Shown in pieces: positions 2,419-53,165 of a stretch of 64,000 bases of DNA (position 1 is its first letter; each line of letters starts with the position of its first letter). Position numbers and translations under genes: made by a program. This DNA comes from a virus. Taxonomy: Duplodnaviria > Heunggongvirae > Uroviricota > Caudoviricetes. The notes beneath the pieces are model-generated. The model saw only the letters and a program-made list of their open reading frames with translations. It made no database searches and was not told the origin of the DNA. Where the stretch lies: positions 100,007-164,006 of IMG/VR virus record IMGVR_UViG_3300028832_000001; one strand, 5' to 3'.

Positions 2419-3894
2419 TTAGAAGTATTTGCCACCATCGAAATCAGTTTTTGGTTTTAGACCTTGTTTAGAGACTCTATAATAGTAGTCATAATCGCCT
2501 TCTTTATATTCTTCAGGATTAGAAGTATAGTTTCCTTCTTCATTGAACTGCGAATAATAGGCAGAATATGGAACATTATACTGGTCACGTAAGGTTTTAT
2601 TACCAAAAGAGATTGTTTGGTCGACATTATGACCGAAACCAGATAATGACATATATTCTTTTTCAACAAGCCATTCATTGGTGTATTCAACACCCCAAAC
2701 TTCTGGATTAAAACCAGATGTTATATCTTCTGGGTCTAAATACATTGGTTTATAACCAATAACATCACCTTTCTTGACATGCTGTTCATTTATGATACAG
2801 TCAGCAGATGCATAAATTGGTCGTGTGTGCAAGATTGGTTTATCTCCACTAACTGTTTCTGTAGCAGGAATCCAAATATTTGTTACCTTTGTAAGAAGCT
2901 TTGCATCTTCTTCATAAGTAGTCAATTCATCAGTTTCCCTATAATCATATGTCGTTATGTATGCAGAAGTTTTTATTCCTTTATATTCATACGGGACAAG
3001 TTCAGTCTTTGGATTACCGTTCAATACATAAGTATGACCAACCTTTGTCTGATAAATCTTGCTGAATTCATAAGGAGTAGTTAAAGAACCGTCTTTATTA
3101 CCAAATGTTGCAGCATGATAAAGATAATCTCCTTTATTTAAAGTAATATAGGTATTAATCTTTTCAATAATCTGTGCATCTTTAATCGGCTTATAAAGGA
3201 ATGCTTCCATAGTAAAGTTAAACGAAACCTTAATCTGTCTCCAGTCTTCTTCACCCATGGATTCACTTTGAATGTCCCATGTCATAGTTTCAAGTTTCAT
3301 CTTGATACTTCTACGTTTATTGAAGAACCAGAATTCCTTAACATCAAAGAATGCAGCAGGCTGGAATCTTACAGCGATTTGTTCGACAATCTGTTCAGCA
3401 TCTGTCATTTTTTCGCAGTTTGCTTCCATTGAAACAGAAATATTATATGGAACCGGTTGAACATCAGACCAGAACTTATCTTGTTGGTCACATACCAATC
3501 CAGCATTTTCCAAATCCTTGTTATAGAATGCACGAGTTTCGTAAATGCCTTTTGCTCTTTCAGTTGCAAATTGCATACTATCCAATCTATAAGTAAGATT
3601 TGGTAAACTTATATAATATTTGTTACCAGATTCTTGTTCAGTTCTGAAGTCATGGGACTTGTTTCTTGGACCGAATTTAATCGGAACATTGATTGTTTTG
3701 ACTGGTTCACCGAACTTATTATAACGAATAACTTTCAATTCGTTAAAGAAATTCTCGAACCCGATAAACAGACTACGCATTGTGTCTGCATAGAAATAAT
3801 TTTGAGGATAACCGAAATTAGGAGCTCCATCAGCAGTTCCTTTCCAATATCCATGTAAACTTGGGTCATACCCTTCTTGTGTGTAATTTGCCAT
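2419..3894 (-). CDS. virion structural protein, unassigned (late gene)
   Basis: 491-aa ORF. TATAAATA at 3916-3923 (minus) lies 21 nt upstream of its ATG with an SD-like AAAGG. Co-transcribed direction with the tape-measure-like ORF. Confidence 0.4.
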   Translation of the reverse strand: MANYTQEGYDPSLHGYWKGTADGAPNFGYPQNYFYADTMRSLFIGFENFFNELKVIRYNKFGEPVKTINVPIKFGPRNKSHDFRTEQESGNKYYISLPNLTYRLDSMQFATERAKGIYETRAFYNKDLENAGLVCDQQDKFWSDVQPVPYNISVSMEANCEKMTDAEQIVEQIAVRFQPAAFFDVKEFWFFNKRRSIKMKLETMTWDIQSESMGEEDWRQIKVSFNFTMEAFLYKPIKDAQIIEKINTYITLNKGDYLYHAATFGNKDGSLTTPYEFSKIYQTKVGHTYVLNGNPKTELVPYEYKGIKTSAYITTYDYRETDELTTYEEDAKLLTKVTNIWIPATETVSGDKPILHTRPIYASADCIINEQHVKKGDVIGYKPMYLDPEDITSGFNPEVWGVEYTNEWLVEKEYMSLSGFGHNVDQTISFGNKTLRDQYNVPYSAYYSQFNEEGNYTSNPEEYKEGDYDYYYRVSKQGLKPKTDFDGGKYF

Positions 3895-3915
3895 AAATAA
3901 CCTTTAATTATATGA

Positions 3916-3923
3916 TATTTATA
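3916..3923 (-). promoter_or_regulatory. T4-late-type TATAAATA motif, canonical spacing (21 nt) to the start of the 491-aa structural gene
   Basis: Exact TATAAATA on the minus strand. The same motif class precedes other structural genes in this window. Confidence 0.4.
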
Positions 3924-3951
3924 GAATTTAAAGTCTTTTTATAAATATATT

Positions 3952-4959
3952 ATGAAATTAAAACTAGTATATAAATGTGAAATTTGTGGATTAAATGACT
4001 TAAATAAGCGTGGTTTAGGTACACATTTACAATTTAAACATTCTGATATTTCTAAAGAAACATATTATAAAAAATATTTAAAATGTATTGATGAAGATAC
4101 TTGTAAAGTTTGCGGGAAACCAACAAAATTTTTATCATTCAAAGTGGGATTTGCTAATTGCTGTTCAAAAGAATGTAGTAGAAAATGGAATAATAAAAGA
4201 ATACAAGATAGTAATTTAGATAAATTTGGGGTTAAAACACCATTTGAGTTAAAAGAAATACAAGAAAAAGTTAAAAATACAATAAAAGAAAAATACAATT
4301 GTGATAATATATTTCAAGTATCAGAAATAAAAGAAAAAATAAAACGGACATTAAAAGAAAAATATAATGTTGAGTACCCGTTAGAGTGTGAATTTTTTAA
4401 GAATAAAGCAAAAGAAACAACGTTTTTAAGATATGGTAATGAAAATTATAGAAATTCATTAAAAGCAGAAGAAACTTGTTTAAAAAACAACGGGGTTAGA
4501 CATCCGGCACAGTCAGGTATAATTGCGAAAAAAACAAGAAGTAAATATATTTATAATAATATAACATTTGATTCTAGTTGGGAACTTGCATATTATATTT
4601 GGTTAAAAGATCATAATATTAATTTTGAATATCATACAATAAAATTAGAATATGAATTTAATAATAATTTATATTATTATTTTCCTGATTTTTTGGTAGA
4701 AAATGATTTGATAGAAATTAAAGGCGATCAGTTTTTATCGGAAACTGGAAATTTAATTTCACCCTATAAAAATACTAATAATGAAAAATTAATTAAAAAA
4801 TTTGAATGCATGAAAAATAATAATGTAAAAATTATTTCTAAAATAGAAATAAAACCTATTATTTTATATATAAAAGAAAAATATGGAAAAAACTTTTTAA
4901 ATAAATTTAGGGAGAAAAATCAGAATGTTTCAGAAAACTGCAGAACTTCGTGGTCATAA
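3952..4959 (+). CDS. putative free-standing homing endonuclease (N-terminal C2H2/zinc-ribbon pair, tandem ~30-aa basic DNA-binding repeats, C-terminal PD-(D/E)xK-like nuclease)
   Basis: The N-terminus has a CxxC...HxxxH finger and a second CxxC...CC..C cluster. Repeats of the form FGVKTPFELKEIQEKVKNTIKEKYN / IFQVSEIKEKIKRTLKEKYNV follow. The C-terminus (WELAYYIWL...FPDFLV...DLIEIKG) is compatible with a D...(D/E)xK nuclease fold. The 3' end overlaps the terminase ORF by 35 nt. Confidence 0.45.
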   Translation: MKLKLVYKCEICGLNDLNKRGLGTHLQFKHSDISKETYYKKYLKCIDEDTCKVCGKPTKFLSFKVGFANCCSKECSRKWNNKRIQDSNLDKFGVKTPFELKEIQEKVKNTIKEKYNCDNIFQVSEIKEKIKRTLKEKYNVEYPLECEFFKNKAKETTFLRYGNENYRNSLKAEETCLKNNGVRHPAQSGIIAKKTRSKYIYNNITFDSSWELAYYIWLKDHNINFEYHTIKLEYEFNNNLYYYFPDFLVENDLIEIKGDQFLSETGNLISPYKNTNNEKLIKKFECMKNNNVKIISKIEIKPIILYIKEKYGKNFLNKFREKNQNVSENCRTSWS

Positions 4960-5845
4960 TGAGGTCGTAGAATTAACTAAAGAACAAATGGATGAATATG
5001 TAAAATGTTCTACAGATATTTTTTATTTTTCCAAATACTTTTATATTTTAAGTGATGAAGGTGAAGCGCCAATACATTTAAGAGAATACCAAGAACGTAT
5101 AGTTCGCTGTCTTGTTGGAAAATATTATGATAAAGAAGGTTCTATTAGAAATAATAGAATAATAATGCAAGGGCGACAGACAGGCAAGACTACTCTGGCC
5201 ACATTATATATTTTATGGTATGCACTTTTTAATGGAGACAAAACTATCGCTGTTCTGGCTAACAAGGAAGACCAAGCAAAAGAAATTATGTTGAGAATTC
5301 GCTCAGCTATTTTGAAACTTCCACTTTGGTTACAACAGGGAATTAATCCTGATAGAGGCGGTTGGTCAAAAGAAAGTATCGGTTTTGATAATGGAACTAA
5401 GATATTCTGTGCTGCTTCTGGTTCTTCTGCTATTAGAGGTAAATCTGTTGACTTGATGCTTGTCGACGAATTTGCATTCTTGCCTGAAGAAGAAGCTAAG
5501 GACTTTATTAAGTCAGTTTTCCCTACACAATCTGGTAGAAAGGATGCTATGATGATTCTTATTTCTACTCCGCATGGTATGAATGAATTTTATAACATCT
5601 GGATGAAAGCTATTTCTGGTGCAAGTTCTTATGTTCCTGCAAAGATTCAATGGTATGAAATTCCTGGAAGAGATGAAGCTTGGAAGAAGAGAATGATTCG
5701 AGACTTCGGTATTCAGATGTTCCAACAGGAATATGCTTGTTTAACTGGAGAACATAAAATAACAGTTCGATCCGAAGAAGGAATCGAACTAACGGAACCG
5801 ATTTCAAAACTATATGAACTTTGGATGGACGGTTTCTTAAGATAA
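4925..5845 (+). CDS. terL: terminase large subunit, ATPase domain only (T4 gp17 N-domain-like); nuclease domain not encoded contiguously
   Basis: Walker A (QGRQTGKTT) and Walker B (DLMLVDEFAF) are present. The order of blocks (YQERIV..., ILISTPHGMNEFYNIW, FQQEYACLTGE) parallels T4 gp17 residues ~130-360. The ORF stops right after the ATPase domain at a bidirectional terminator. Confidence 0.7.
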   Translation: MFQKTAELRGHNEVVELTKEQMDEYVKCSTDIFYFSKYFYILSDEGEAPIHLREYQERIVRCLVGKYYDKEGSIRNNRIIMQGRQTGKTTLATLYILWYALFNGDKTIAVLANKEDQAKEIMLRIRSAILKLPLWLQQGINPDRGGWSKESIGFDNGTKIFCAASGSSAIRGKSVDLMLVDEFAFLPEEEAKDFIKSVFPTQSGRKDAMMILISTPHGMNEFYNIWMKAISGASSYVPAKIQWYEIPGRDEAWKKRMIRDFGIQMFQQEYACLTGEHKITVRSEEGIELTEPISKLYELWMDGFLR

Positions 5846-5848
5846 AAA

Positions 5849-5884
5849 TAAAATCACCTTTTTGAAGGTGATTTTTTATTTTCG
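5849..5884. terminator. bidirectional rho-independent terminator (aaatcacctt-tttg-aaggtgattt) between terL and convergent GT gene
   Basis: 10-bp perfect inverted repeat flanked by A-run and T-run. Sits between convergent genes. Confidence 0.6.
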
Positions 5885-6739
5885 TTTAAACGGATTTAAT
5901 AATTTTGTATATTCATTTTCAGGATAATCTATTGATTTATCAGTAGGTTGATCCTTATATTTTAAATTTTCTACACTATCTATTCTTGTTCTATTTAATT
6001 TTTCTTCCCATTCATCTAATGAACGATGATAATAATGGAACAATCTAATATCACAATTTGATACATTTATTTTTGCTTTTGGTCCTACAACTTTTGGTTC
6101 AAATGTTGTATTATTTGGTAGTGTTACAGGATAATTATTAATAAAATGTGGATATACAAATTTTATATGGTCCATAGTATTTTTTAAAAATCTATGAATA
6201 AATGGTTTTACATCAACAAATGTTTCTTGATTATATTTTTCACTGACATACTTACAATCATCAATCATTGGTTTTTGTCTTGTTTTTGGTGTTTTAGATG
6301 ATTTATAAGAAATATTTGTTCTAGGAACACCAAATTGATAAATATCATTTTCATTTAATTTTTTTAAATAATCATTTATTGTTTTATATTTTGTTTTATC
6401 AAACCATAGATATTCGTCATCATCACAGAAAAATTGATATGTGTATTTATTATTTGTATTAACATATCTAGTATAATAATATTGTTGAACATTTAAAAAT
6501 TTAGATTTATCATATAATAAAACAACATCTACTTTTTCATTATCTTTAAATTTTTCTTTTATATTACAACAATTACTTTCATTATCTACAATAATAATAT
6601 GGTCAAATCCACACCAATTTAAATAGTGGTCAACCCATGAATCTATATCGCATTCTTTATATAATTTTGTTATTAATATAACTTCAGAAGAAATTGGTTT
6701 TGTTTTATATGGATTTTTCAATTCACTAGTTCTAAACAT
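5876..6739 (-). CDS. putative glycosyltransferase, GT92 (DUF23)-like GT-A fold
   Basis: Motif WVDHYLNWCGFDHIIIVDNES resembles the GT92 signature (HYxxxGxDHxxIYDNxS). A later HYYHRS also fits. 287 aa. Confidence 0.4.
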   Translation of the reverse strand: MFRTSELKNPYKTKPISSEVILITKLYKECDIDSWVDHYLNWCGFDHIIIVDNESNCCNIKEKFKDNEKVDVVLLYDKSKFLNVQQYYYTRYVNTNNKYTYQFFCDDDEYLWFDKTKYKTINDYLKKLNENDIYQFGVPRTNISYKSSKTPKTRQKPMIDDCKYVSEKYNQETFVDVKPFIHRFLKNTMDHIKFVYPHFINNYPVTLPNNTTFEPKVVGPKAKINVSNCDIRLFHYYHRSLDEWEEKLNRTRIDSVENLKYKDQPTDKSIDYPENEYTKLLNPFKRK

Positions 6740-14994: not shown

Positions 14995-15933
14995 TTAAAG
15001 AATTTTATAACCTTTTTGCTTTAAGAATTCAACCGCTTCTTGTACTTGCCTACTTGATCTTCTTTGCATGATTTCTTGTTGGAATTTTTGAGTAAATTTC
15101 TTAAGAGCATCTGGATCTTTTATCTCTGCAGGTAATCTATCGTAAACACCAAGTTCTTCAGCTTTTTTACAAAGGACGTTTGGTCTAAAACGTTTAGTAA
15201 TAACAAGGTCCATAATTTCATCTTCTGTTCCAGTGCGAAGAATATCTACAACTTCAGGTTGAGTTCTAATTTCCAATCTATTCCAAATCTTTGGTTTCAT
15301 AATTGGTTGGTTGAAATTGAACTTATAACTATCTTTATTTGCTCTTGATTGCAACTGACCGATAGTATAACCTTTTCTAATTAATTTACTATGGTTTCCA
15401 GAATAGAAATCAGCAATATCGCTTTCATCTTTCCAACCTTCAATAGTTGCTTTTAATATATGTTGACGAACAGCCTTTTGAACTTCTGCATCAGGTTTAA
15501 TATCAATGTCTAAGTCATTATTCGGCATTGCAACATAATCTTGAGAAGTATCTTCATCGTCTTCCTTAGGGAAACGGTTGATAGTTCCGGTATATTCAGG
15601 AATGTCGATATATTTGTTCTTATACTGTTCGATTACTTCATCAGTTAAAATTTCAGAAACGAACCAAGGAACACGATAATTTTCACCCATGGTTAAATAA
15701 CCAAACATTAAAGCTCGTTTTGCAAAATTATCTGCTCTTTTTAAGAACTCACTTTTTTCTTCCCTGTTATTACCAACATTGCCACTTTTTAAGAATTTGA
15801 TTAAGTTAGTAATTGTATTATGACATGCTACGAAATAACTTTTTTTGTATTGGCTATTTTTATTTTCTTCTACAAGTTCTTTAGTTTTTGCAAGTGCTTT
15901 TCTCAAGCCAAGCATTAATGAATCATATCCCAT
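14995..15933 (-). CDS. hypothetical late protein carrying a C-terminal copy of the LK-x-x-GY motif
   Basis: 312 aa. TATAAATA at 15957-15964 (minus) lies 23 nt upstream with SD AAGGAAA. The C-terminus ...AVEFLKQKGYKIL matches the motif shared by the 50.7-53.1 kb paralogs. Confidence 0.45.
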   Translation of the reverse strand: MGYDSLMLGLRKALAKTKELVEENKNSQYKKSYFVACHNTITNLIKFLKSGNVGNNREEKSEFLKRADNFAKRALMFGYLTMGENYRVPWFVSEILTDEVIEQYKNKYIDIPEYTGTINRFPKEDDEDTSQDYVAMPNNDLDIDIKPDAEVQKAVRQHILKATIEGWKDESDIADFYSGNHSKLIRKGYTIGQLQSRANKDSYKFNFNQPIMKPKIWNRLEIRTQPEVVDILRTGTEDEIMDLVITKRFRPNVLCKKAEELGVYDRLPAEIKDPDALKKFTQKFQQEIMQRRSSRQVQEAVEFLKQKGYKIL

Positions 15934-16051
15934 AGTATTTTCCTTAATTTTTATTATATTTATAAAAAATACGGATAAATGTAAAATTTTATTTACAATA
16001 ACCAGAAAATTTCTATATTTTATATGATATAATATAAATAGAATAAAAAAT

Positions 16052-29318: not shown

Positions 29319-29326
29319 TATAAATA
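29319..29326 (+). promoter_or_regulatory. T4-late-type TATAAATA motif, 24 nt upstream of the ATG with SD AAGGAG
   Basis: Exact TATAAATA, with canonical late-promoter-to-start spacing. Confidence 0.4.
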
Positions 29327-29350: not shown

Positions 29351-30637
29351 ATGAATTTAAGTGAAGCAAGAGATATTCTCGGTAAATGTGGATATTCATT
29401 TTTGAAAGAATCTACAGAATTAACCAGAGATATTATGCTTAAATATGCTAAGCAATTAGCACAGCAAAATGATAAAATTGGTATTATCAAGGGAAAAAAC
29501 CCAGAAGATGGTGATTTTGATATAATCATTTATTATAATAATGATAAGATTAAAGTTGCATCATATAAAGGTTATGAAAATGAAGTTTATGTAAGGGAAT
29601 TCAAGAGTTCTTTATCTGGAATGCCAGCAAAGAAAGTTGAAACCTTAGAAGATTTACGTTCATATATTGATTCTACATTGAAATATATGGAAAAATATAA
29701 AGAAGACAACAATAATCAATACAAAACAAGTGTCGAAGATATTGAAAAAGATAAGGAAGAATGGGCTAACAACATGGATCAAAACGAGTCATTAAAACTT
29801 AAAAAAGCATTACAGTTCCTTGCTGAATGCGGTTATACAATTAGTAAAAATACAAGAATTGATGAAATGTCTCGTGCATCTGACCGTGTTCTTGGTCATG
29901 ATTCTGCAGAAAACTTGCTTTATATGCTTGCTGACTGGAAGAAACAGTATGACAGAACTGGTAAGAATGCTACATTAGGTCAATTTGCCAAATTTGTTCA
30001 AGATAATGGCATTAGTTGGGACTTAATTAGTGGTCTCAGCTTACCAGGATTACCAAGAACAGAACCTCCTACACGTTCATCTAGGAGAATTGATTTGGAA
30101 GCTATTATTGCTTCTTTACAAGGTCAGCTTGGACAAGATGTTAGCGATGTTCGTAACCGTGTTGATTTAGGTAAGGATGATTACGATAGATTAATCGACA
30201 CCTTCTGGGATTATTATGAAAAGAACCGTGATGGTGAAGATGTTTCTGCACTTGTTGATTCTGAAAATTTCCAGGCACTCATTAGATTGTTTGCTGAAGA
30301 ACCAGAAACTGCACAGGAAGTCTTTGGTAGAAACTATGACAAGGCTAATAGCAAGTTACAGAGATTTATTAATCCTGATTCCGCAGCTGCTTTGATTGGC
30401 GAATTCTGGGATTGGTATTATGCTAAGAAGGCTGGTCGTGACATTGACTTCGATCCAGAAAAGGCAGAAAAGATTGCAGACTTGCTTGAAACCCCGAATG
30501 CTAAGGATGAAATTTTCGGCGGTAACGGTTCTTACTATACTGTTCTTAGAACAATTAGTAACATTGTTGGTAGACAGCTTGGTCAGAGAGATGCAGACTT
30601 CGATTACGATTCTTTGAATGGTGATTTGAGCCTCTAA
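29351..30637 (+). CDS. late protein with N-terminal SAP/HeH-like motif (MNLSEARDILGKCGYSF) and an internal second copy
   Basis: 428 aa. The N-terminus matches the motif family of the 50.7-53.1 kb paralogs. A second copy lies at ~aa 150 (LKLKKALQFLAECGYTI). The rest is helical and acidic. Confidence 0.5.
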   Translation: MNLSEARDILGKCGYSFLKESTELTRDIMLKYAKQLAQQNDKIGIIKGKNPEDGDFDIIIYYNNDKIKVASYKGYENEVYVREFKSSLSGMPAKKVETLEDLRSYIDSTLKYMEKYKEDNNNQYKTSVEDIEKDKEEWANNMDQNESLKLKKALQFLAECGYTISKNTRIDEMSRASDRVLGHDSAENLLYMLADWKKQYDRTGKNATLGQFAKFVQDNGISWDLISGLSLPGLPRTEPPTRSSRRIDLEAIIASLQGQLGQDVSDVRNRVDLGKDDYDRLIDTFWDYYEKNRDGEDVSALVDSENFQALIRLFAEEPETAQEVFGRNYDKANSKLQRFINPDSAAALIGEFWDWYYAKKAGRDIDFDPEKAEKIADLLETPNAKDEIFGGNGSYYTVLRTISNIVGRQLGQRDADFDYDSLNGDLSL

Positions 30638-39177: not shown

Positions 39178-42100
39178 ATGAAAAAGATAATCGGAATATT
39201 ATTAGTTTTAGCTGCATTTGTTTTTTCTGCAGACTATAAGCCGTTTAACTTTGAAACTATCCCACAAGATTCTGCAAGTCAACAGGATCAATTTGATTAT
39301 ATGCTTCAATATAAGTTATATGGTCATGATTTTATCAAAATGGGAAATGATGTTCGTATTCCAGACAAGTCAGGTTGGAATGGTACTGTAGGTAATATTA
39401 CTTCTAATGCAAGATTGACCTTGGGCGGTCCGATTCTTGCAAATGGTAGTATTTCTATGGGTGATGGTCCAAATAATATTACTGGACCAGTTCGCTCAGT
39501 CGATTTTGATCTTGGAAATGTAAATAATTCCAAAATCGCAAGCCCTGTTTGCTTAAGCGGAACCGCAAATGCTAATGCATTGTCTGCGATTGAAGATCAT
39601 AAGACTTATTCTTTCGATGCAAACATTTGTAAGGACAGCGTTCCTGCTGCACCTACAAATCTTTATATGCCGATTGTTGATTGGGATAATCTTGGTGCTG
39701 ATGTTAAGTTGGATGATATTGTTTTAAGTGGCAATGATGCTACAGATACTATTTTTGTTCCTAAAGGTGAAGGCGCATATAAGATTTTAATTGATAAGAT
39801 TCAGTTTGGCCTTGGCGGAACTAATGCAAGCCATTTGTATGTTAAGATGCAAGATGGCGGTAGATTGACCCAGATTTTCGTAAAGAATTTTATTTATGGA
39901 AATCATGCTACAATTCAGGTTGTTTATGATACTGACAGTGGAAGCGTAGTATTGAATCAGGACCAATATCGTGGTAACTTGATGTTCTATTCTAATAATG
40001 TTATCAGTTTTGATAATATGGACTATGCTCCTATTCAAGGTTCATTTATTTCTACTGATTCAATTTTCTTGGGAAGAAACGTTAATATTTCTGGTCAGTT
40101 ATTGACTAATAAGCTTGAAATTGGAAATGATATTGATGGTAAAAACTTCAGATTTGTTAAATTCGACCCTGATACAATCGATGTTAAGCTTGATAAGTAT
40201 GGTGGTTTGAGAGAAAATGATTCTACTGTTATTATTCCTATTGAACTAAGTGATACTGCTACTATCGCTGTATATTTTAGATATTGTTTTGATTTGAAAG
40301 ATGGTGTAACTGTTGAAGATTTTAATATTCCGCCTACATTCCCTATTTGTAACATCGATCAACCGAAAGAAGTATCTATTCCTATCGGTTCAAAGATTCC
40401 AAGTGATCCAATTAAGGTAAATGTTAAAGTCGATACATTGACAGAAAATGAATATCTTGTAATTAAGATTGATAGCATTTCTGGTGCTATTCTTCCTGAT
40501 GGTAAGACTGAAGGAGAATTAAAGATTAAGATTATTGACGCTCCTATTGGACATGTTGAATTTGATACTACAAAGACATATGAGTTTGAGGAAAATAAAC
40601 TTGGTGAAGTAGATGTAATCAAGATTTTAAATGGAACTGAAAATACTCGTTTCCATCTTGATAGTGCATATACTGATAGATATGAATTGGATAGCTTGAC
40701 TGGTAAGTTGACACTTATTGGTGAACCATTAGATTATGAAAAGGCTGCAATCGATGTTATTAAGGTTACATTGACTGATACTGGCAATGTAAGTGTAACT
40801 CGTAATATTCCTATTACAGTAATTGACGTTAATGAAGCACCTACTATCGATGATGTAACTGCTAATCTTCCGGAAAATCTTATTCATCCATTCATGGTTG
40901 AAAAGTTAGTTGCAAAAGATCCAGATACTAAGACAACATTTACTCAAAATGTTTTCAGTATGCTTGAAGGTGATACAAGCTTATTTAGAGTAGATTCTGA
41001 TGGTGAAATTTGGGCAAAGAAGACATTTGACTATGAAACTGATCAGAAAACCTATACTTTGAAGGTTTTGGTTCATGATAAGACTAATCCAGCATTGAAG
41101 GATAGTGCTATTGTTACTGTTAATATCACAAACAGCAATGATGGTCCTAAGTTTGACAGAAATGATACTACATTCCATGTAAATGAAAATGAACCATTTA
41201 AGGATAGTGTAAAGGCAACTGACCAGGATGGTGATAAGATTACTTATTCTATCATTGGAAGTGTTCCATTCAAAATTGATTCTACTGGCGTAATTACTTC
41301 TACTAGAACATTTGACTATGAAAAAGAAAAAGAATTTACATTCAAGGTCATTGCTGATGATGGTAAAGCAAAAGATACAATGACTGTAAATATTATAGTA
41401 GACAATGTAAATGAGCCTGTTCATACCAAAGATACAACTTTTGTTGTAGATGAAGGTAAAACTGGTGAAATCGGTAAAGTCAAAGGAGAAGATGAAGATG
41501 GAAAGCCTGTTAAATTTTCTTGCGATGATAGTGTGCATTACAGCATCGATACTAATACTGGTATTCTTAGACTGGTAGACCCATTTGACTATGAGATTAC
41601 AAAATCTGATACCATAAAGGTATTTGTTACTGATAGTCTATTTACAGATACTGCCATAGTTATTATTAATGTTAATAATGTAAATGAACCTCCTGTATTA
41701 CAGCCAAATGATTCTCTTACAGTTCCAGAAAATTGTAAGAATTGTATTGTTGGTATTATTACAGCAGTTGACCCTGACAGTGATAAGGTAATTTACGAAG
41801 TTAAGGAACCTGGTTTCACAATCGATACAAATGGAGTATTAAAGCTCACTGATCCTCTTGATTATGAGAAAACTCCAGAAGTTAAGATTACAGTTATTGC
41901 AAAGGATTCTAGTGGCGCAGCTGATACTGCCACCTATATAATTAAGATAACTGATATTAATGAACCAGTCCATGTTCAAGATACAACTTGTTCTGTAAAG
42001 GAAAATTATACTGGTAAGGTTTGCAAGATTACAGCAACTGATGAAGATAAAACAACTCCTAAATATATAATTACCGATACTACAAATTATTCTATCGATT

Positions 42101-43986
42101 CTACTGGTGTAATTACTATTAAGAACCCGATTGATTATGAAAAGAAGACTAAGGACACAGTAACTGTTATTGTAACTGATGACGAATTTTCTGATACCGC
42201 ACAGGTAATTATCAGAGTTCTCGATGAACCTGAAAAGGTTGAAATTACCACATGGGATGATGAAAAGCCTAAAGATACAGTAAAGACAAATGACCCAGAT
42301 CATAAGTTCGAATGGGAACTTTGTGAAGGTGATAGCTGTATTAAGCATGAAGAATTTCCGCATATCAAGAAAGATACAACTATCAAGGTATGTAATGATA
42401 AGAAGACTGTTTGTGATTCAGTTGTAGTTTTATTCAATGATGCACCTCCAGTTGTTACTTTGACAAATGCAAAGTCTACTGATGCATTGATTGACTATAT
42501 TACAATCGAAGAACAGAAGGACGATAAGATTTATGTCAACAAGAAAGAAAATCCAATTACTGTAACTGTTAGAGATACTGTTCATAAGACAGAAAAGAAA
42601 TTTGATATTAAAGTTAAGCTTGATACAATTCCTACTAAGGATATTAAGATTAAGGAATATAACTACTTGATTGATGAATCTCTTGCAACTCATACAGCAA
42701 TAGGTAACAATCTTATTGAAGTTTCTGAAGTTATTTCTGTTGACGGTAATAAGATAACAATTTCTAAGATTGTTGATAAGAAGACAATGGAACCAATCGA
42801 TACAGTTCAAACTGTTACTTATCATAAGAAGGTTGGTGGTAAGGACGTAGTTGTTTCTTATAAGACTGATAATCTTACTGGTCAGAGAGTTTCTGATTAT
42901 GAAATTTCTTACATGGCTGATTCTTGCACTAAGGTTACATATACTGTAAATGATAAGAAGGAAATTGTTAAGAATAAGGAAGGAAATATTGCATATAATA
43001 TCACTTATGATTATGTAGATGATTTTGGTAACAAAGCATCTGCATCAGTTGAAATTATCTTCGACGATATTCCGCCTAAGGTTGAAATTCTTGGACCTGG
43101 TCCAATGGAACATTTCAATACAAATGCAATTCCAGTTAAGTGGACAGTTAATGGCGAAACACAAGATACTTTGACATTACAGAGACTTGAAAAAGGTGTT
43201 AACTATATTATCAGAAGATATGTAGATAAGGCTGGTAACGTCGCTGCTGATACAGTCACAGTTCTTATGAATGAAGCCAAGGATATTGATATTGAAATTA
43301 TCAATCCAGTAACCAAGGTTGACCAGGATAAAGTTGATGAATATTATTCTGAAGGTCATAAGTATAATGATAAGAAACCGTTTGACGTCAAGTTTGTTGA
43401 CCCGAAGAACGATACAATTCCAGATGTAATTGGTGTTGGTTTCAAGGTTGATATTGTACTTCCGTCTGTTTCTCCTACTGGTTCTCTTGCAACATTGGAT
43501 GACATTGTAAAGAATGGTCAGATTCCAGTTGATGATAAGGGAAATATCGTTGGTGCTTCTACAAAGGGAATTCCAGTAGATAAGTATGTTGAAGAACATT
43601 GTACTGAAGAATTCCAGAAGGATTACGATAAGTATGGTTTGAATATTCCGCTTTATGACGTTACTTATAAACTTCATCTTTGGGTATATACAACTACTGC
43701 AAACTATGTAAATGATTTTAATATTGAATTTACATTGAATGATGAAGCTAAGACTACTACAGCAGGAACTGTCCAGATGGTTATCGACTGGTTGTCTGAT
43801 AAGGATGGAAACGTCAAGGCTAAGAACCATCATGCTTTAGGAACAGGCGCATATATAACCAAGTTGTTCAGCACTTCTGTTGCAAAACACCGTTGTGATT
43901 ATAAGGATCAAGTTAAGGGTGATAGAACTGTAAAGAAGGATGAAACAATGAAAACATTTGGTTATAAGCGACCAAACAACAAGTAA
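39178..43986 (+). CDS. giant secreted protein with multiple cadherin-like repeats
   Basis: Signal peptide (MKKIIGILLVLAAFVFSA). At least six domain junctions carry cadherin-type linker motifs (VIDVNEAPTI, NSNDGPKF, DNVNEPVHT, NVNEPPVL, DINEPVHV, LDEPEKV). Each is preceded by ...DYE(K/T)... blocks. 1602 aa. Confidence 0.6.
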   Translation: MKKIIGILLVLAAFVFSADYKPFNFETIPQDSASQQDQFDYMLQYKLYGHDFIKMGNDVRIPDKSGWNGTVGNITSNARLTLGGPILANGSISMGDGPNNITGPVRSVDFDLGNVNNSKIASPVCLSGTANANALSAIEDHKTYSFDANICKDSVPAAPTNLYMPIVDWDNLGADVKLDDIVLSGNDATDTIFVPKGEGAYKILIDKIQFGLGGTNASHLYVKMQDGGRLTQIFVKNFIYGNHATIQVVYDTDSGSVVLNQDQYRGNLMFYSNNVISFDNMDYAPIQGSFISTDSIFLGRNVNISGQLLTNKLEIGNDIDGKNFRFVKFDPDTIDVKLDKYGGLRENDSTVIIPIELSDTATIAVYFRYCFDLKDGVTVEDFNIPPTFPICNIDQPKEVSIPIGSKIPSDPIKVNVKVDTLTENEYLVIKIDSISGAILPDGKTEGELKIKIIDAPIGHVEFDTTKTYEFEENKLGEVDVIKILNGTENTRFHLDSAYTDRYELDSLTGKLTLIGEPLDYEKAAIDVIKVTLTDTGNVSVTRNIPITVIDVNEAPTIDDVTANLPENLIHPFMVEKLVAKDPDTKTTFTQNVFSMLEGDTSLFRVDSDGEIWAKKTFDYETDQKTYTLKVLVHDKTNPALKDSAIVTVNITNSNDGPKFDRNDTTFHVNENEPFKDSVKATDQDGDKITYSIIGSVPFKIDSTGVITSTRTFDYEKEKEFTFKVIADDGKAKDTMTVNIIVDNVNEPVHTKDTTFVVDEGKTGEIGKVKGEDEDGKPVKFSCDDSVHYSIDTNTGILRLVDPFDYEITKSDTIKVFVTDSLFTDTAIVIINVNNVNEPPVLQPNDSLTVPENCKNCIVGIITAVDPDSDKVIYEVKEPGFTIDTNGVLKLTDPLDYEKTPEVKITVIAKDSSGAADTATYIIKITDINEPVHVQDTTCSVKENYTGKVCKITATDEDKTTPKYIITDTTNYSIDSTGVITIKNPIDYEKKTKDTVTVIVTDDEFSDTAQVIIRVLDEPEKVEITTWDDEKPKDTVKTNDPDHKFEWELCEGDSCIKHEEFPHIKKDTTIKVCNDKKTVCDSVVVLFNDAPPVVTLTNAKSTDALIDYITIEEQKDDKIYVNKKENPITVTVRDTVHKTEKKFDIKVKLDTIPTKDIKIKEYNYLIDESLATHTAIGNNLIEVSEVISVDGNKITISKIVDKKTMEPIDTVQTVTYHKKVGGKDVVVSYKTDNLTGQRVSDYEISYMADSCTKVTYTVNDKKEIVKNKEGNIAYNITYDYVDDFGNKASASVEIIFDDIPPKVEILGPGPMEHFNTNAIPVKWTVNGETQDTLTLQRLEKGVNYIIRRYVDKAGNVAADTVTVLMNEAKDIDIEIINPVTKVDQDKVDEYYSEGHKYNDKKPFDVKFVDPKNDTIPDVIGVGFKVDIVLPSVSPTGSLATLDDIVKNGQIPVDDKGNIVGASTKGIPVDKYVEEHCTEEFQKDYDKYGLNIPLYDVTYKLHLWVYTTTANYVNDFNIEFTLNDEAKTTTAGTVQMVIDWLSDKDGNVKAKNHHALGTGAYITKLFSTSVAKHRCDYKDQVKGDRTVKKDETMKTFGYKRPNNK

Positions 43987-49826: not shown

Positions 49827-50756
49827 ATGAGATATATTAAAGGGAGAAGTAATTTAAGTTGCACAATTTTTGTGCCATGGGATTGTAATAATCATTGCAA
49901 GTTCTGTACATCTAAGCAGATGTATAAACAAAGAACTTGTGATATTAATGCAATTCTTGCACAAATCAAAAAACTTAATGAAAATCCGTTAATTGAAGAA
50001 TTTGTATTAACAGGTGGAGAACCATTAGCAGATATTGAGAAATGTCAGATTCTTATTGACGCTATGGAGAAACCTGTTTATATCAATACTACATTCCCAA
50101 CATTTACAGATTTGCCTGGAACAGTAGAAATGTCTAAAGTCAAGACGTTAATCGATTTCATTAATAATAATGAAAAGATTGGTGGTTTGAATATTTCCAG
50201 ACATATGCATCAACAGTTTTATGAACCAGTTTTGCCAGTAGATATGTTTGCACATTTAATTAAGAAACATATTAAATTAAATGTAGTTCTTTCTAAGGAG
50301 TTTAATATAAACGAATTTAAAGCGTTTATAGAACCTTATAAAGAATTAGAAAATCTATCTATCTGTATTAGAGCAGATTATCGGAATATTACTAAAGATA
50401 ACTTAAAGAATCGTGACGATGTATTTGAAAAGTTAATTTTAGAATATGAATATGAAAGTTCTGGCGGATGTATGGTTTGTAATGACGATAGATTTTGGAA
50501 TAATAATTTATTAATCAGTTATCATCGTGGAATGGAACATTCTAAAGTAGTTTATGGTAATAAGATATTTGTAAATGATATTTTGATTACTATTGATGGA
50601 CAAGTTTATGATGACTGGGATTTAGTAACAAATACAGAATTTGAAAGATGGGTATTTGGCGAATATTTATTGACAGATGATATATCTGAATATGAAAATG
50701 ATCCAGTATATATTGATTGGTTATTGAAAAAGAATGGTGAAGAAGGTATATTATGA
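49827..50756 (+). CDS. second radical-SAM enzyme (N-terminal CxxxCxxC, no obvious SPASM/RRE); function unknown
   Basis: VPWDCNNHCKFC at aa 17-28, FVLTGGEPLA at aa ~60, and a lone CMVC pair at ~aa 212. 309 aa. The stop overlaps the start of the Cys/Gly peptide ORF (ATGA). Confidence 0.6.
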   Translation: MRYIKGRSNLSCTIFVPWDCNNHCKFCTSKQMYKQRTCDINAILAQIKKLNENPLIEEFVLTGGEPLADIEKCQILIDAMEKPVYINTTFPTFTDLPGTVEMSKVKTLIDFINNNEKIGGLNISRHMHQQFYEPVLPVDMFAHLIKKHIKLNVVLSKEFNINEFKAFIEPYKELENLSICIRADYRNITKDNLKNRDDVFEKLILEYEYESSGGCMVCNDDRFWNNNLLISYHRGMEHSKVVYGNKIFVNDILITIDGQVYDDWDLVTNTEFERWVFGEYLLTDDISEYENDPVYIDWLLKKNGEEGIL

Positions 50757-50953
50757 CATTAACTGAATTACGACAAAAACTTAAAACCGCAGGTATGAAA
50801 CAACTTAAAATTACTGGTTGTGGTGGATATGTAGGATGTGGAACTGGTGGTTATTATGACTATGCCAATGCACATTTTGGAAATCCTCCACAATGGGTAT
50901 CGTATAGTTGCGGATTTTATATGAGATGTGGTGGTCCTACTACATGTGGTTAA
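50753..50953 (+). CDS. Cys/Gly-rich 66-aa peptide with SAP/HeH-like N-terminal helix (candidate rSAM substrate / RiPP-like precursor)
   Basis: MTLTELRQKLKTAGMKQLKITG followed by CGGYVGCGTGGYYDYANAHFGNPPQWVSYSCGFYMRCGGPTTCG (6 Cys, 11 Gly). Translationally coupled to the rSAM ORF. Confidence 0.45.
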   Translation: MTLTELRQKLKTAGMKQLKITGCGGYVGCGTGGYYDYANAHFGNPPQWVSYSCGFYMRCGGPTTCG

Positions 50954-50956
50954 AAA

Positions 50957-50985
50957 GAAAGAGTCAAGAAAACCTTGACTCTTTT
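50957..50985. terminator. bidirectional terminator (aaagagtcaag-aaaacc-ttgactcttt)
   Basis: 10-bp inverted repeat between the convergent peptide gene and the minus-strand paralog operon. Confidence 0.55.
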
Positions 50986-50993
50986 TATATTAT

Positions 50994-51605
50994 TTAAATT
51001 GATGGTTTAACATGTGTTATAGGCAGTCTAAGTAATTTATCTGGAAGTATATTTAATTTTGAAAGTAATGTATATGCGACTTCACGACTAATACCAGATT
51101 CATATAAAGTTTCAATTATTTCAACTGTTCTTATCTCGCTAGTTTTTATTTTACGTGCAAGTTTATAAATTTTAGTGAATTTAGAATAGTCATTACTTTC
51201 ATTTATATTAATTATAATTTTGCCAGTTTTAGGATTTTTATATTCTGCACAACCATAATATGAATTATATCCAGTAAATTCATATCTTTTATTTTTGACA
51301 ATAATAGTTGCTGGTGTTTCATCTTCATCATCGTCATAATAATAACTGCCACAACCGCTACTATGACAACTAGAAACATATCCGCAACCTACTCTGACAC
51401 TTCTGGATATTGTACCACATCCACCACCATAACTACTGCTACTACCACATCCAGAACTATAGCTGGAACCGCAACCACTGCTGCCGCACCCAGAACTATA
51501 ACTGCTGCTTCCGCTACAACCACCACTATAACTACCGCATTCATTAAGCCTACGAACAGTGTAGCCTTTATTTTTAAGTAATTCTCTTGCTTCTAATAAA
51601 TTCAT
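50994..51605 (-). CDS. motif-family paralog 4: N-terminal MNLLEARELLKNKGY helix + (S/G/C)-rich low-complexity core with repeated SSGCG units
   Basis: 203 aa. Residues ~20-95 read NECGSYSGGCSGSSSYSSGCGSSGCGSSYSSGCGSSSSYGGGCGTISRSVRVGCGYVSSCHSSGCGSYYYDDDEDE (13 Cys). A normal-composition C-terminal domain follows. Confidence 0.5.
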   Translation of the reverse strand: MNLLEARELLKNKGYTVRRLNECGSYSGGCSGSSSYSSGCGSSGCGSSYSSGCGSSSSYGGGCGTISRSVRVGCGYVSSCHSSGCGSYYYDDDEDETPATIIVKNKRYEFTGYNSYYGCAEYKNPKTGKIIININESNDYSKFTKIYKLARKIKTSEIRTVEIIETLYESGISREVAYTLLSKLNILPDKLLRLPITHVKPSI

Positions 51606-51619
51606 AAATGCCCCTTACA

Positions 51620-51994
51620 TTAGAACAACCAGTCTAATTCTATCATTACTCCCCATTTACAATATCTAATAGTTACATCAAAGCCTCGTTCTTTTGCAAG
51701 TTTAAAGTATTTTTTAAATATTGTAGGATTATCTTCGTATTCTTTATCATGTACTATAATACCTGTACTACCTTCTTCATATTTAGCATGACCATATTTA
51801 ACATTTGATAATATAGCATCAAGGCCAACAAGTTTTGATTCTTCTGCAGTAAGTTCATTTTTTATTGCAGTAAATTCATCAAACAGTAATTTTTGTTTGT
51901 CAGAATCTAATTTTATTGGGGCTTCTTCAAGTTCTTCTTTAATAATAGCATAGCCATTATCTTTAAGTAATTCTGTTGCTTCTTGTAAGTTCAT
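51620..51994 (-). CDS. motif-family paralog 3 (MNLQEATELLKDNGYAI...)
   Basis: 124 aa. The N-terminal 17 aa match the family motif. The remainder is unique. Confidence 0.45.
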   Translation of the reverse strand: MNLQEATELLKDNGYAIIKEELEEAPIKLDSDKQKLLFDEFTAIKNELTAEESKLVGLDAILSNVKYGHAKYEEGSTGIIVHDKEYEDNPTIFKKYFKLAKERGFDVTIRYCKWGVMIELDWLF

Positions 51995-52007
51995 TTTAAA
52001 TCCTTTA

Positions 52008-52442
52008 TTAAAAATTATTTAAAAATGCATGCATTATTGCACCTTTTTGGTAAATAGCATTACATTCTTCATAAACTGCTTTTTTGCTTTTTAGTTTCTT
52101 AAAGTCTTCTTCAGTTAATGGATTAGGATCTTCAGATTTCCAACCTAATTCCCATGCTTCCTGTAGGTCTTTTTTAGGGGTATCATAGTCTTTGCAATAA
52201 CGTTTTAAAACAATTTCACCAATATCTTTACCGGTATCGTTCAATTCTTTTTCAGAGAGAATGGTATTTTGATAGCCTATTTGGACGGTATTCTGTGCCC
52301 AAGAAGAATTTATAAGTTTAGAACGATATGCTAGATAATCATCGGCACTATTAAAACGTATTTCAGATTCATTCATTACAGGTTTATCTATAACCTTGTA
52401 ATGATTTTCTTTTAATATAGATATAGCTTCTTTTAAGTTCAT
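52008..52442 (-). CDS. motif-family paralog 2 (MNLKEAISILKENHYKV...)
   Basis: 144 aa. N-terminal family motif, unique C-terminal domain. Confidence 0.45.
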   Translation of the reverse strand: MNLKEAISILKENHYKVIDKPVMNESEIRFNSADDYLAYRSKLINSSWAQNTVQIGYQNTILSEKELNDTGKDIGEIVLKRYCKDYDTPKKDLQEAWELGWKSEDPNPLTEEDFKKLKSKKAVYEECNAIYQKGAIMHAFLNNF

Positions 52443-52460
52443 AAGAGTATTCTTTAAATA

Positions 52461-53096
52461 TTAGAGTTCTTCGTTAATTCTATCAGCAGCATCTTGTGGA
52501 GCAATAAGACCTTGATTATAAAGGTCAGCAGCAATTTGCTTTGCCCTTGGTAAATCTTCATCATCGAGCATACCACCATCTTCCTGAGCTAAAGATAGAG
52601 CCTTAGCAATATAGTCTTCTTCAGCATTTGGAACCATAGTTTCGATTTCATCATCGTCAATCGGTGCAAATTCCATTTCATCAAAGAAAAGTTCAATCTT
52701 ACGGCCAGGTTTCTTTTCTTCTCTGACATAACCAAGTTCCTTAAGAACTTCAGACCATTGTGTATTTTTGTATGTTCTTAGGCGAGACTTTACAAAAGCA
52801 ATTTCACGTGGAGTCAAAACTTCACCATTCTGAACTTTTTCTGCTAATGGAGAAAGATAAGCAGCATCAGTTTGGTTAAAACCCCTATAATTACGTAAAA
52901 CGGTACGTCTACCTTGCTTTTCGAAATCTACCTGACGTCCATACATACCAATGAGAAGAACAATAACGAACTTATCATTTTCCAAATATTCCTTAATTCG
53001 CTGATTAAGCTGGAAATTTGATGTATAAACATCTTCCTTTATGATTTTATAACCGTGTTCTTTAATAACTTTAATAGCTTCTGCCATTTTTTTCAT
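52461..53096 (-). CDS. motif-family paralog 1 (MKKMAEAIKVIKEHGYKII...), first gene of the late operon
   Basis: 211 aa. TATAAATA at 53116-53123 (minus) lies 19 nt upstream with SD AAGGAGA. The acidic C-terminus also contains a second loosely similar helix (AKQIAADLYNQGLI). Confidence 0.45.
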   Translation of the reverse strand: MKKMAEAIKVIKEHGYKIIKEDVYTSNFQLNQRIKEYLENDKFVIVLLIGMYGRQVDFEKQGRRTVLRNYRGFNQTDAAYLSPLAEKVQNGEVLTPREIAFVKSRLRTYKNTQWSEVLKELGYVREEKKPGRKIELFFDEMEFAPIDDDEIETMVPNAEEDYIAKALSLAQEDGGMLDDEDLPRAKQIAADLYNQGLIAPQDAADRINEEL

Positions 53097-53115: not shown

Positions 53116-53165
53116 TATTTATAAGATAAAAACAGATTATATCCGATTATTTTGAGTTATAAATA
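53116..53165. promoter_or_regulatory. divergent pair of T4-late-type TATAAATA motifs (53116-53123 minus; 53158-53165 plus)
   Basis: Each lies 19-24 nt upstream of its gene start, driving the paralog operon leftward and the 1128-aa fiber operon rightward. Confidence 0.4.

Follow-up and report, generated by a model that had tools for sequence, protein, structure and literature searches.

The window analyzed here, a stretch of 64,000 nucleotides from a tailed phage (Caudoviricetes; IMG/VR record IMGVR_UViG_3300028832_000001, positions 100,007 to 164,006), encodes a set of proteins in which the same short peptide precedes largely unrelated bodies, and this peptide belongs to a large, undescribed tag family of a clade of AT-rich T4-like phages that are known from metagenomes alone, with ruminant gut among the sources. 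The tag has the consensus MNLNEAKQILKNNGYILE, spans about 18 residues and is followed by a stretch rich in Asp and Glu. Its amphipathic helix is N-capped and terminated by Gly, with Tyr and a short hydrophobic strand thereafter, and the tag works as a module, being mostly N-terminal and occurring also in tandem, internally and, in fusions, at the C-terminus. We favor, with a confidence that falls somewhat short of even, the explanation that it serves these proteins as a common docking or targeting signal, by which they are most probably incorporated into the virion. Cargo proteins of many kinds would thereby be brought to a single partner encoded by the phage, most likely the assembling virion, after the precedent of prohead-core loading by the capsid-targeting sequence (CTS) of T4; cleavage past Glu5 by a gp21-type protease would be possible but is not required by the data. 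We take the T4 CTS as the closest known architecture because of the terminal peptide, the flexible linker, the hypervariable bodies devoid of known domains, the T4-late-type promoter-like sites TATAAATA and the fast turnover of the gene arrays concerned.

The extent of the family was assessed at the level of both DNA and protein. A back-translated DNA pattern for the tag, holding 39 bits of information, gave 27 matches in 23 IMG/VR stretches, with about one or fewer estimated by chance; all 27 open an open reading frame (ORF) of 87–336 residues, and several of the source contigs measure 141–424 kb. Searching a tag profile against 1.84 billion (1.84e9) cluster representatives retrieved 243 protein clusters at E ≤ 1e-3. 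Of the 159 top-ranking proteins, 128 have no tag other than the one at residue 1, and 14 combine an N-terminal tag with a further one inside the protein or at its C-terminus; the inner copy often keeps its Met, which points to gene fusion. Fusion-like internal or C-terminal copies, with neighboring tagged genes apparently joined, are found in L014:1641 (312 residues), P0009, P0036, P0038, P0040, P0047 and P0079, and P0009 is equal to the latter half of the L014 protein, encoded by a gene of its own. Domain scans (E ≤ 1 for eight window proteins, with the HMMER filters losing most matches above about 0.1; E ≤ 0.01 for ten tagged proteins, E ≤ 0.001 for a further 104 and E ≤ 0.1 for ten multi-tag proteins) found the tag covered by neither a Pfam nor a PHROG model, be it in the window members or in 114 tagged proteins from elsewhere, and NCBIfam returned nothing for it on the window proteins. 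Known domains of any kind are almost absent from the 114 outside proteins. An enzymatic domain of known type was found in one tagged protein alone. Encoded at L019:8159-9004 (plus strand, 281 residues), it consists of tag MTLEEAIQILEENGYNIL, a hydrophobic segment rich in Gly and Ala and an SLT lytic transglycosylase domain (E 6.5e-20), an activity that is commonly virion-borne; a weak match to the “internal head protein” family phrog_2667 was seen in one of 104 tagged proteins (E 2.1e-4). A full-text literature search on variants of the N-terminal heptamer of the tag found no relevant paper, and one on rumen T4-like jumbo phages likewise found nothing relevant. With neither a Pfam or PHROG model nor a relevant paper found, the tag constitutes a new and widespread N-terminal module that is useful for annotation.

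Selection on the peptide is indicated by the variation of synonymous codons at its invariant residues (two to five each at Ala6, Leu10, Gly14 and Tyr15) and by the modest DNA identity among the window copies. The same codon evidence rules out a DNA-level cause, be it a conserved 5′ cassette or a translation signal. Within the 100 best N-terminal copies the element h-x-E-A is invariant, and position 4 is Asn, Asp or Thr in 82, as expected of a helix N-cap. The tag is net neutral, and the linker carries a mean net charge of −2.2 over residues 19–34. In p124, one of the tagged window proteins, the layout is that of a tag, an indel-prone acidic linker (residues 21–33) and an α/β body (residues 32–124) predicted to fold with confidence: across 18 orthologues tag and body are conserved and the linker carries the indels, and an AlphaFold model based on the orthologue alignment gives a predicted local distance difference test score (pLDDT) above 89 for the body and 64–71 for a helix at residues 3–12, with coil at residues 13–31. 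The tag is thereby predicted to be a helix detached from a confidently folded body. Foldseek returned no match for this model in the PDB at E ≤ 0.001.

These structural features bear on a claim of the sequence-only reading, which had likened the peptide to the DNA-binding modules SAP, HeH, LEM and Rho_N. Such modules comprise two helices, joined by a conserved Gly-containing extended turn, in about 35 residues. The tag has about 18 residues, with one helix followed by coil; no second helix is present in the p124 model, C-terminal copies end straight past the strand, and no Pfam profile for these modules matches any of the 8 window or 114 outside tagged proteins at the thresholds given above. 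Where L-x-E-A-x-x-L-L-K-x-x-G is likened to SAP, at its first helix and turn, the resemblance is superficial, and the neutral tag with its acidic linker would argue against DNA binding, so that a family of DNA-associated proteins carrying such a module appears extremely improbable. HicA-like and Tad2/DUF2829-like readings were dropped as no Pfam match supports either. The pattern does recur outside phages. Run against PDB sequences, the tag profile found non-significant matches alone, in MetQ, Ssu72 and phosphoglycerate mutase, at regions that we take to be helix-to-strand connections of α/β folds, and the same DNA pattern that finds the phage tags also retrieved a Fur-family regulator of 137 residues from about 80 Bacillaceae genomes (L047-L137), which begins with the same 15-residue pattern (MNLTEALRLMKEKGYKHTGKR). 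We assume this regulator to be Zur and its 15 residues to be helix α1 of the DNA-binding domain. There the helix appears to be integral and the domain continues directly (K-x-T-x-K-R...), whereas in the phage proteins an acidic linker and unrelated bodies come after the tag; the match is probably a convergence of a simple capped helix and does not speak for homology. Its presence in the Fur-family regulator and in α/β helix-strand units marks the tag pattern as that of a generic capped helix.

A few proteins carry several tags, with P0005 having two in 38 residues, P0091 three, and P0066 and P0109 four to six with acidic linkers between them. Such tandem and multiple copies would suit an explanation in which the helix-strand units pair with one another, keeping the proteins together as homo- or hetero-oligomers and playing no part in targeting, and a lone helix plus strand cannot fold unaided and so needs a partner surface. 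Most tagged proteins, however, have a single copy, and self-association leaves both the link to TATAAATA and the hypervariable arrays unexplained. An AlphaFold model of three-tag P0091, made with no alignment, shows no packed structure, though at a pLDDT of 45 this low-confidence model is uninformative. We judge pairing of tags to be an unlikely account of the family.

In the window, the tag opens four ORFs in register, as MNLxEAxxhLxxxGY. These are p124 (51620-51994, minus strand; tag MNLQEATELLKDNGYAII at 51941-51994), p203 (50994-51605, minus strand; tag MNLLEARELLKNKGYTVRRLNE at 51540-51605), p144 (52008-52442, minus strand; tag MNLKEAISILKENHYKVI at 52389-52442) and p428 (29351-30637, plus strand; tag MNLSEARDILGKCGYSFL at 29351-29404). 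A divergent tag, MKKMAEAIKVIKEHGYKII, is present at residues 4–21 of p211 (52461-53096, minus strand; tag at 53034-53087). Three further candidate copies are a degenerate internal one in p428 (residues 150–165, nucleotides 29798-29845, plus strand; LKKALQFLAECGYTIS), the motif-like extreme C-terminus of p312 (14995-15933, minus strand; QVQEAVEFLKQKGYKIL directly before the stop, nucleotides 14998-15045) and the N-terminus of p66, a peptide encoded on the plus strand at 50753-50953. The strength of the copies was gauged with a hidden Markov model (HMM) for which only phage lineages other than that of the window supplied tag sequences; the six-frame ORFs of the window, residue-shuffled 100 times, served as control (maximum 10.3 bits, 95th percentile 8.0 bits). 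By this independent HMM, p124 (20.3 bits) and p203 (17.9 bits) lie far above the shuffle maximum, p144 (9.5 bits) lies above the 95th percentile and under the maximum, and p211 (7.5 bits) is borderline. The C-terminal copy in p312 (3.9 bits) is not significant alone, and the internal copy of p428 as well as p66 are unscored. The N-terminal copy of p428 is likewise unscored by the independent HMM, and its 20.6 bits come only from another HMM, built with this copy among its sequences. The copy starts in register at Met1 (MNLSEA..IL...GY) and matches the motif pattern, and its orthologues read MNLNEA (MNLNEARSILGNCGY). We probably deal, in p428, with a fusion of two tagged genes.

From register and scores together, the seven-member family proposed in the sequence-only reading becomes one of four in-register copies (p124, p203, p144 and p428) and a divergent one (p211), with p312, the internal copy of p428 and p66 unproven. 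The motif does occur at the ORFs that had been named, and a pattern search of the six-frame translation matches those ORFs alone; it is strands, strength and promoters that needed correction, with the ORFs at 50994, 51620, 52008 and 52461 being on the minus strand. That the regions behind the motif are unrelated holds as well: BLASTP among the bodies finds no relation save a weak one between p203 and p124 (33% over 39 residues, E 4e-4, in a tiny database), which involves the C-terminal region of p203. The body of p144 is without known domain in the Pfam, PHROGs and NCBIfam scans of window proteins, and that of p211 matches phrog_21015 at residues 31–111, the PHROG domain thus starting past the tag.

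Genes p211, p144, p124 and p203 follow one another, in this order and with gaps of 14–18 nucleotides, as one minus-strand operon behind a single TATAAATA (53116-53123, minus strand), 19 nucleotides upstream of p211, and the operon ends at a bidirectional terminator-like hairpin (50956-50986) between the convergent p66 and p203. The TATAAATA sites of p428 (29319-29326) and p312 (15957-15964, minus strand) lie 23–24 nucleotides upstream of their genes. The gp3-like tail sheath stabilizer gene and the large gene at 53190, which we take to be a fiber gene, are preceded by TATAAATA of the same spacing class of 19–30 nucleotides. Of the seven genes that had been placed under late-type promoters, six are thus covered by three TATAAATA sites, four of these genes as one operon, and p66 is without a TATAAATA of its own. 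In other lineages, about half of the tagged genes have their own TATAAATA at most 70 nucleotides away. The sites in the window fall into two spacing classes, one having a gap of 19–30 nucleotides and a ribosome-binding site and the other placing TATAAATA only 4–11 nucleotides before the ATG, as is seen for nine window genes (TATAAATA at 2345, 3940, 8830, 9659, 13200, 16033, 24788, 35158 and 63848) and likewise for some tagged genes of L011 and L019; the short spacing suggests leaderless or near-leaderless transcripts.

The window has a guanine-plus-cytosine (GC) content of 32% and encodes T4-type functions, among them the gp3-like tail sheath stabilizer, UvsW-like and gp41-like helicases, a gp32-like single-strand DNA-binding protein, NrdD, NrdG and a T4-type terminase N-domain. 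Megablast of the window locus against cultured phages gave no match, and tblastn of the consensus tag against cultured phages gave nothing significant; the contigs of the relatives are metagenomic, with sources including cattle rumen assemblies and goat and yak gut metagenome-assembled genomes (MAGs). Three GTDB genome contigs (L075, L111 and L118), of which two (191 kb and 173 kb) are of the phage lineage of the window and one (40 kb) is of a related tag-array phage, are binned in three “Methanobrevibacter sp.” goat-gut MAGs, probably through composition-driven mis-binning (GC 0.31–0.35). Among close relatives the array has a fixed position, between the nrdG module and the putative fiber gene, and a hypervariable content. 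Its first two genes, p211 and p144, are constant in all relatives compared. Both p124, a variable member, and p203 are found in the window and in L029; p124 is missing from the array in L001, L002 has a hybrid gene in the array, L003-L005 have no genes beyond p211 and p144, and L075 holds two different 118-residue tagged genes. Tandem arrays also occur elsewhere: L012 packs six tagged genes into 6 kb, L118 has five, and L016, L018 and L019 have four apiece.

Beside the tag arrays, a second shared N-terminus, MNLNEW(T/V)MN(Q/A)AAGLL(N/T)E, is found on proteins of 172–289 residues with no Pfam match (L016:10974-11492, L016:12647-13516 and L018:2627-3256, all minus strand; L118:7123-7650, plus strand), and a third, MNL(E/D)YAAYLLNE..ILNEDA, on two proteins of about 900 residues, again with no Pfam match (L019:735-3476 and 3565-6246). 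Several N-terminal tag classes may thus coexist.

Tandem arrays, the residual similarity of the p203 and p124 bodies, the L002 hybrid gene and the fusion proteins are also what would be expected if the tag were an inherited remnant, that is, if repeated duplication had been followed by divergence of the bodies, with the N-terminus kept for folding, stability or expression and no common partner. Against this stand the bodies themselves, which range from 30 to more than 400 residues without detectable relationship, and the occurrence of near-identical tags across lineages of 30–39% GC and 243 clusters. Moreover, the codon data exclude constraint at the level of DNA or mRNA, and a tag that is predicted to be detached via a flexible linker should be dispensable for folding of the body. 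We regard mere inheritance as improbable.

Returning to the docking or targeting tag, the sequence-only reading had suggested capsid-packaged, ejected effector proteins as one possibility, and the architecture of the set agrees with this: a short N-terminal peptide is the sole common feature of unrelated proteins behind T4-type TATAAATA sites, as with the T4 CTS (PMC3012670, PMC9026906). It had also read L-x-E|A as a prohead-protease site, and here the element is indeed invariant in the 100 best copies, although helix N-capping explains it equally well. On the explanation that a gp21-type prohead protease cleaves after Glu5, MNLxE would be a five-residue propeptide of capsid-packaged proteins. 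Positions 3, 5 and 6, being L/I/F, E and A/S with E and A in 100 of the 100 top copies, fit the (L/I)-x-E logic of T4 (PMC9026906), and the gene content of the phage is T4-like. The N-cap residues Asn, Asp and Thr at position 4 nevertheless account for the element, and the conserved AKQILKNNGYILE sits downstream of the proposed cut, so most of the tag would stay on the mature protein. This propeptide explanation we hold to be unlikely.

Several points weigh against a targeting role in virion assembly. Internal and tandem copies keep h-x-E-A, which fits structural capping over a protease site. The conserved part of the tag lies past the putative cut, whereas the targeting residues of T4 lie upstream of it. 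No prohead protease or head gene is present in the window, which is without a head module. As the pattern is that of a generic helix, the motif alone implies no docking role. The tag shows no sequence similarity to the T4 CTS, and with T4 IPI, IPII and IPIII as queries phmmer gave E > 1 for all tagged proteins. The late-promoter identity of TATAAATA is putative, drawn from T4 and from the genes that it precedes.

A bolder version of the targeting explanation is that the tag is the universal cargo-loading signal of a large uncultivated T4-like clade (some contigs being 170–430 kb), the hundreds of tagged proteins devoid of known domains being hypervariable effectors, for instance anti-defense proteins, that are packaged in the virion and ejected. 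We consider this extension rather doubtful. If true, effector arrays could be read straight from sequence, and proteins of foreign origin could be loaded into such capsids with the tag as a handle. Should the tag be a targeting signal at all, one 18-residue motif would mark hundreds of dark-matter phage proteins as one functional class, namely cargo bound for a single destination, probably the virion, and offer an entry to the ejected-effector and anti-defense repertoires of uncultivated ruminant-gut phages.

Next to the array lies a radical S-adenosylmethionine (SAM) gene (49827-50756, plus strand; 309 residues with the cluster motif CNNHCKFC), and the start of p66 overlaps its stop (ATGA), signifying translational coupling. 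The 66 residues of p66 comprise a 22-residue leader-like N-terminus, MTLTELRQKLKTAGMKQLKITG, and a Cys/Gly-rich core. Residues 23–88 of p203 are of low complexity and rich in Cys, Gly, Ser and Tyr, and p66 and p203 align gaplessly over their first 26 residues, with 10 of 26 identical including C23-G24-x-Y26. The radical SAM protein has 342 homologues. In other large phage-like contigs, homologues at 40–62% identity likewise precede Cys/Gly-rich peptides of 77–142 residues, singly or as a pair. In five of seven contexts (L032, L033/L034, L036 and L038) the gene immediately behind the homologue encodes a Cys/Gly-rich peptide whose leader is helical, such a peptide being absent in L035 and L037. 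The leaders in L038, MKTTLKELMIRDLKKSG and MANTLRDLLIRGLNKRG, resemble that of p66. A small putative precursor gene coupled to an enzyme gene, with the pairing kept in homologues, is thus found, as in ribosomally synthesized and post-translationally modified peptide (RiPP) systems. The radical SAM protein reaches no curated maturase family (best NCBIfam score at most 33 bits, against cutoffs of at least 126), and Pfam gives Radical_SAM and Fer4_12 alone, with no match to a SPASM/twitch domain. A literature search on phage RiPP or radical SAM systems found nothing relevant.

One could therefore ask whether the tag is a leader recognized by the neighboring radical SAM enzyme, with the family members as its substrates. 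The N-termini of p66 and p203, each of 22 residues before an in-register C-G-x-Y and a Cys/Gly-rich core, agree with this, as do the co-presence or co-absence of p203, p66 and the radical SAM gene among relatives and a distant radical SAM homologue that precedes a Cys/Gly-rich protein holding the tag-like LSEALREALERRGIVFRRDN. Tagged genes are, however, kept without a nearby radical SAM gene in L003-L005 and L075, the flanking stretches retrieved around tag arrays of other lineages contain no radical SAM gene, and most tagged proteins lack a Cys-rich core, which makes the leader reading very improbable for the family as a whole. For p66 alone it is about evenly balanced, and it may extend to p203. 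The earlier inclusion of p66 in the tag family is accordingly not retained: it has no independent-HMM score and fits the radical-SAM-coupled Cys/Gly-rich peptides instead, so that it is best read as a putative substrate of the adjoining enzyme. The p203 protein combines a tag with a Cys-rich core and is possibly a second candidate substrate. Radical SAM gene and Cys/Gly-rich peptide together may form an undescribed phage peptide-modification cassette, and the pair is a second, separate lead for phage-encoded peptide modification.

Some further observations concern other genes of the window and its relatives. A 306-residue ORF (4925-5845, plus strand) matches the N-terminal ATPase part alone of a T4-type large terminase, with no nuclease half seen adjoining it, and the terminase gene may be split or interrupted. 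In the L031 relative, nrdD is present as two ORFs of 587 and 229 residues. A protein of 1602 residues (39178-43986, plus strand) is encoded behind TATAAATA; its counterpart in L029 by position, not by alignment, is a 1781-residue gene (L029:18024-20378) with cadherin-repeat Pfam matches, and the window protein may be a virion surface or adhesin protein.

Several known systems bear comparison with these genes. PASTA (PF03793) is the only recurrent Pfam resemblance of the tag, which aligns to profile positions 9–37 of 64, corresponding to helix α1 and strand β2. Summed partial matches across its tags carry multi-tag proteins past the whole-protein cutoff, P0066 reaching 36.2 bits (E 5.8e-9), but no single stretch is significant, less than half of the domain positions are covered, and matches occur in multi-tag proteins alone, with none among the window proteins. 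The repeat unit of the multi-tag proteins, of about 29 residues, is too short for a PASTA domain, and the complete domain of about 64 residues, with one helix and three strands, is not present. The pair of p66 and its neighbor resembles RiPP precursor/radical SAM maturase pairs in that a short gene for a leader and core is translationally coupled to that of a radical SAM protein, and differs in that the enzyme falls outside the curated RiPP maturase families and that p203, at 203 residues, is a protein and not a peptide.

Encapsulin cargo-loading peptides and bacterial microcompartment encapsulation peptides are short terminal amphipathic peptides that, via a flexible linker, bring unrelated cargo to a protein shell. 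The tag appears to share this architecture, whereas sequences, hosts and shell systems differ.

Closest remains the T4 CTS. In T4, diverse internal proteins share only this sequence, which loads them into the prohead core, and the set is described as anti-restriction proteins that are then ejected (PMC3012670, PMC9026906). Like the CTS of IPI, IPII, IPIII and their polymorphic T-even relatives, the tag is the sole common feature of diverse, fast-evolving small proteins and contains an (L/I)-x-E-A element. It has no similarity in sequence (MKTYQEFIAE versus MNLNEAKQILKNNGYILE), about double the length and the ability to stand inside a protein, at its C-terminus or in tandem, and the tagged bodies and linkers are acidic where those of T4 are basic. 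Should the tag indeed prove to be a targeting signal, the T4 CTS principle would be extended to a non-homologous tag.

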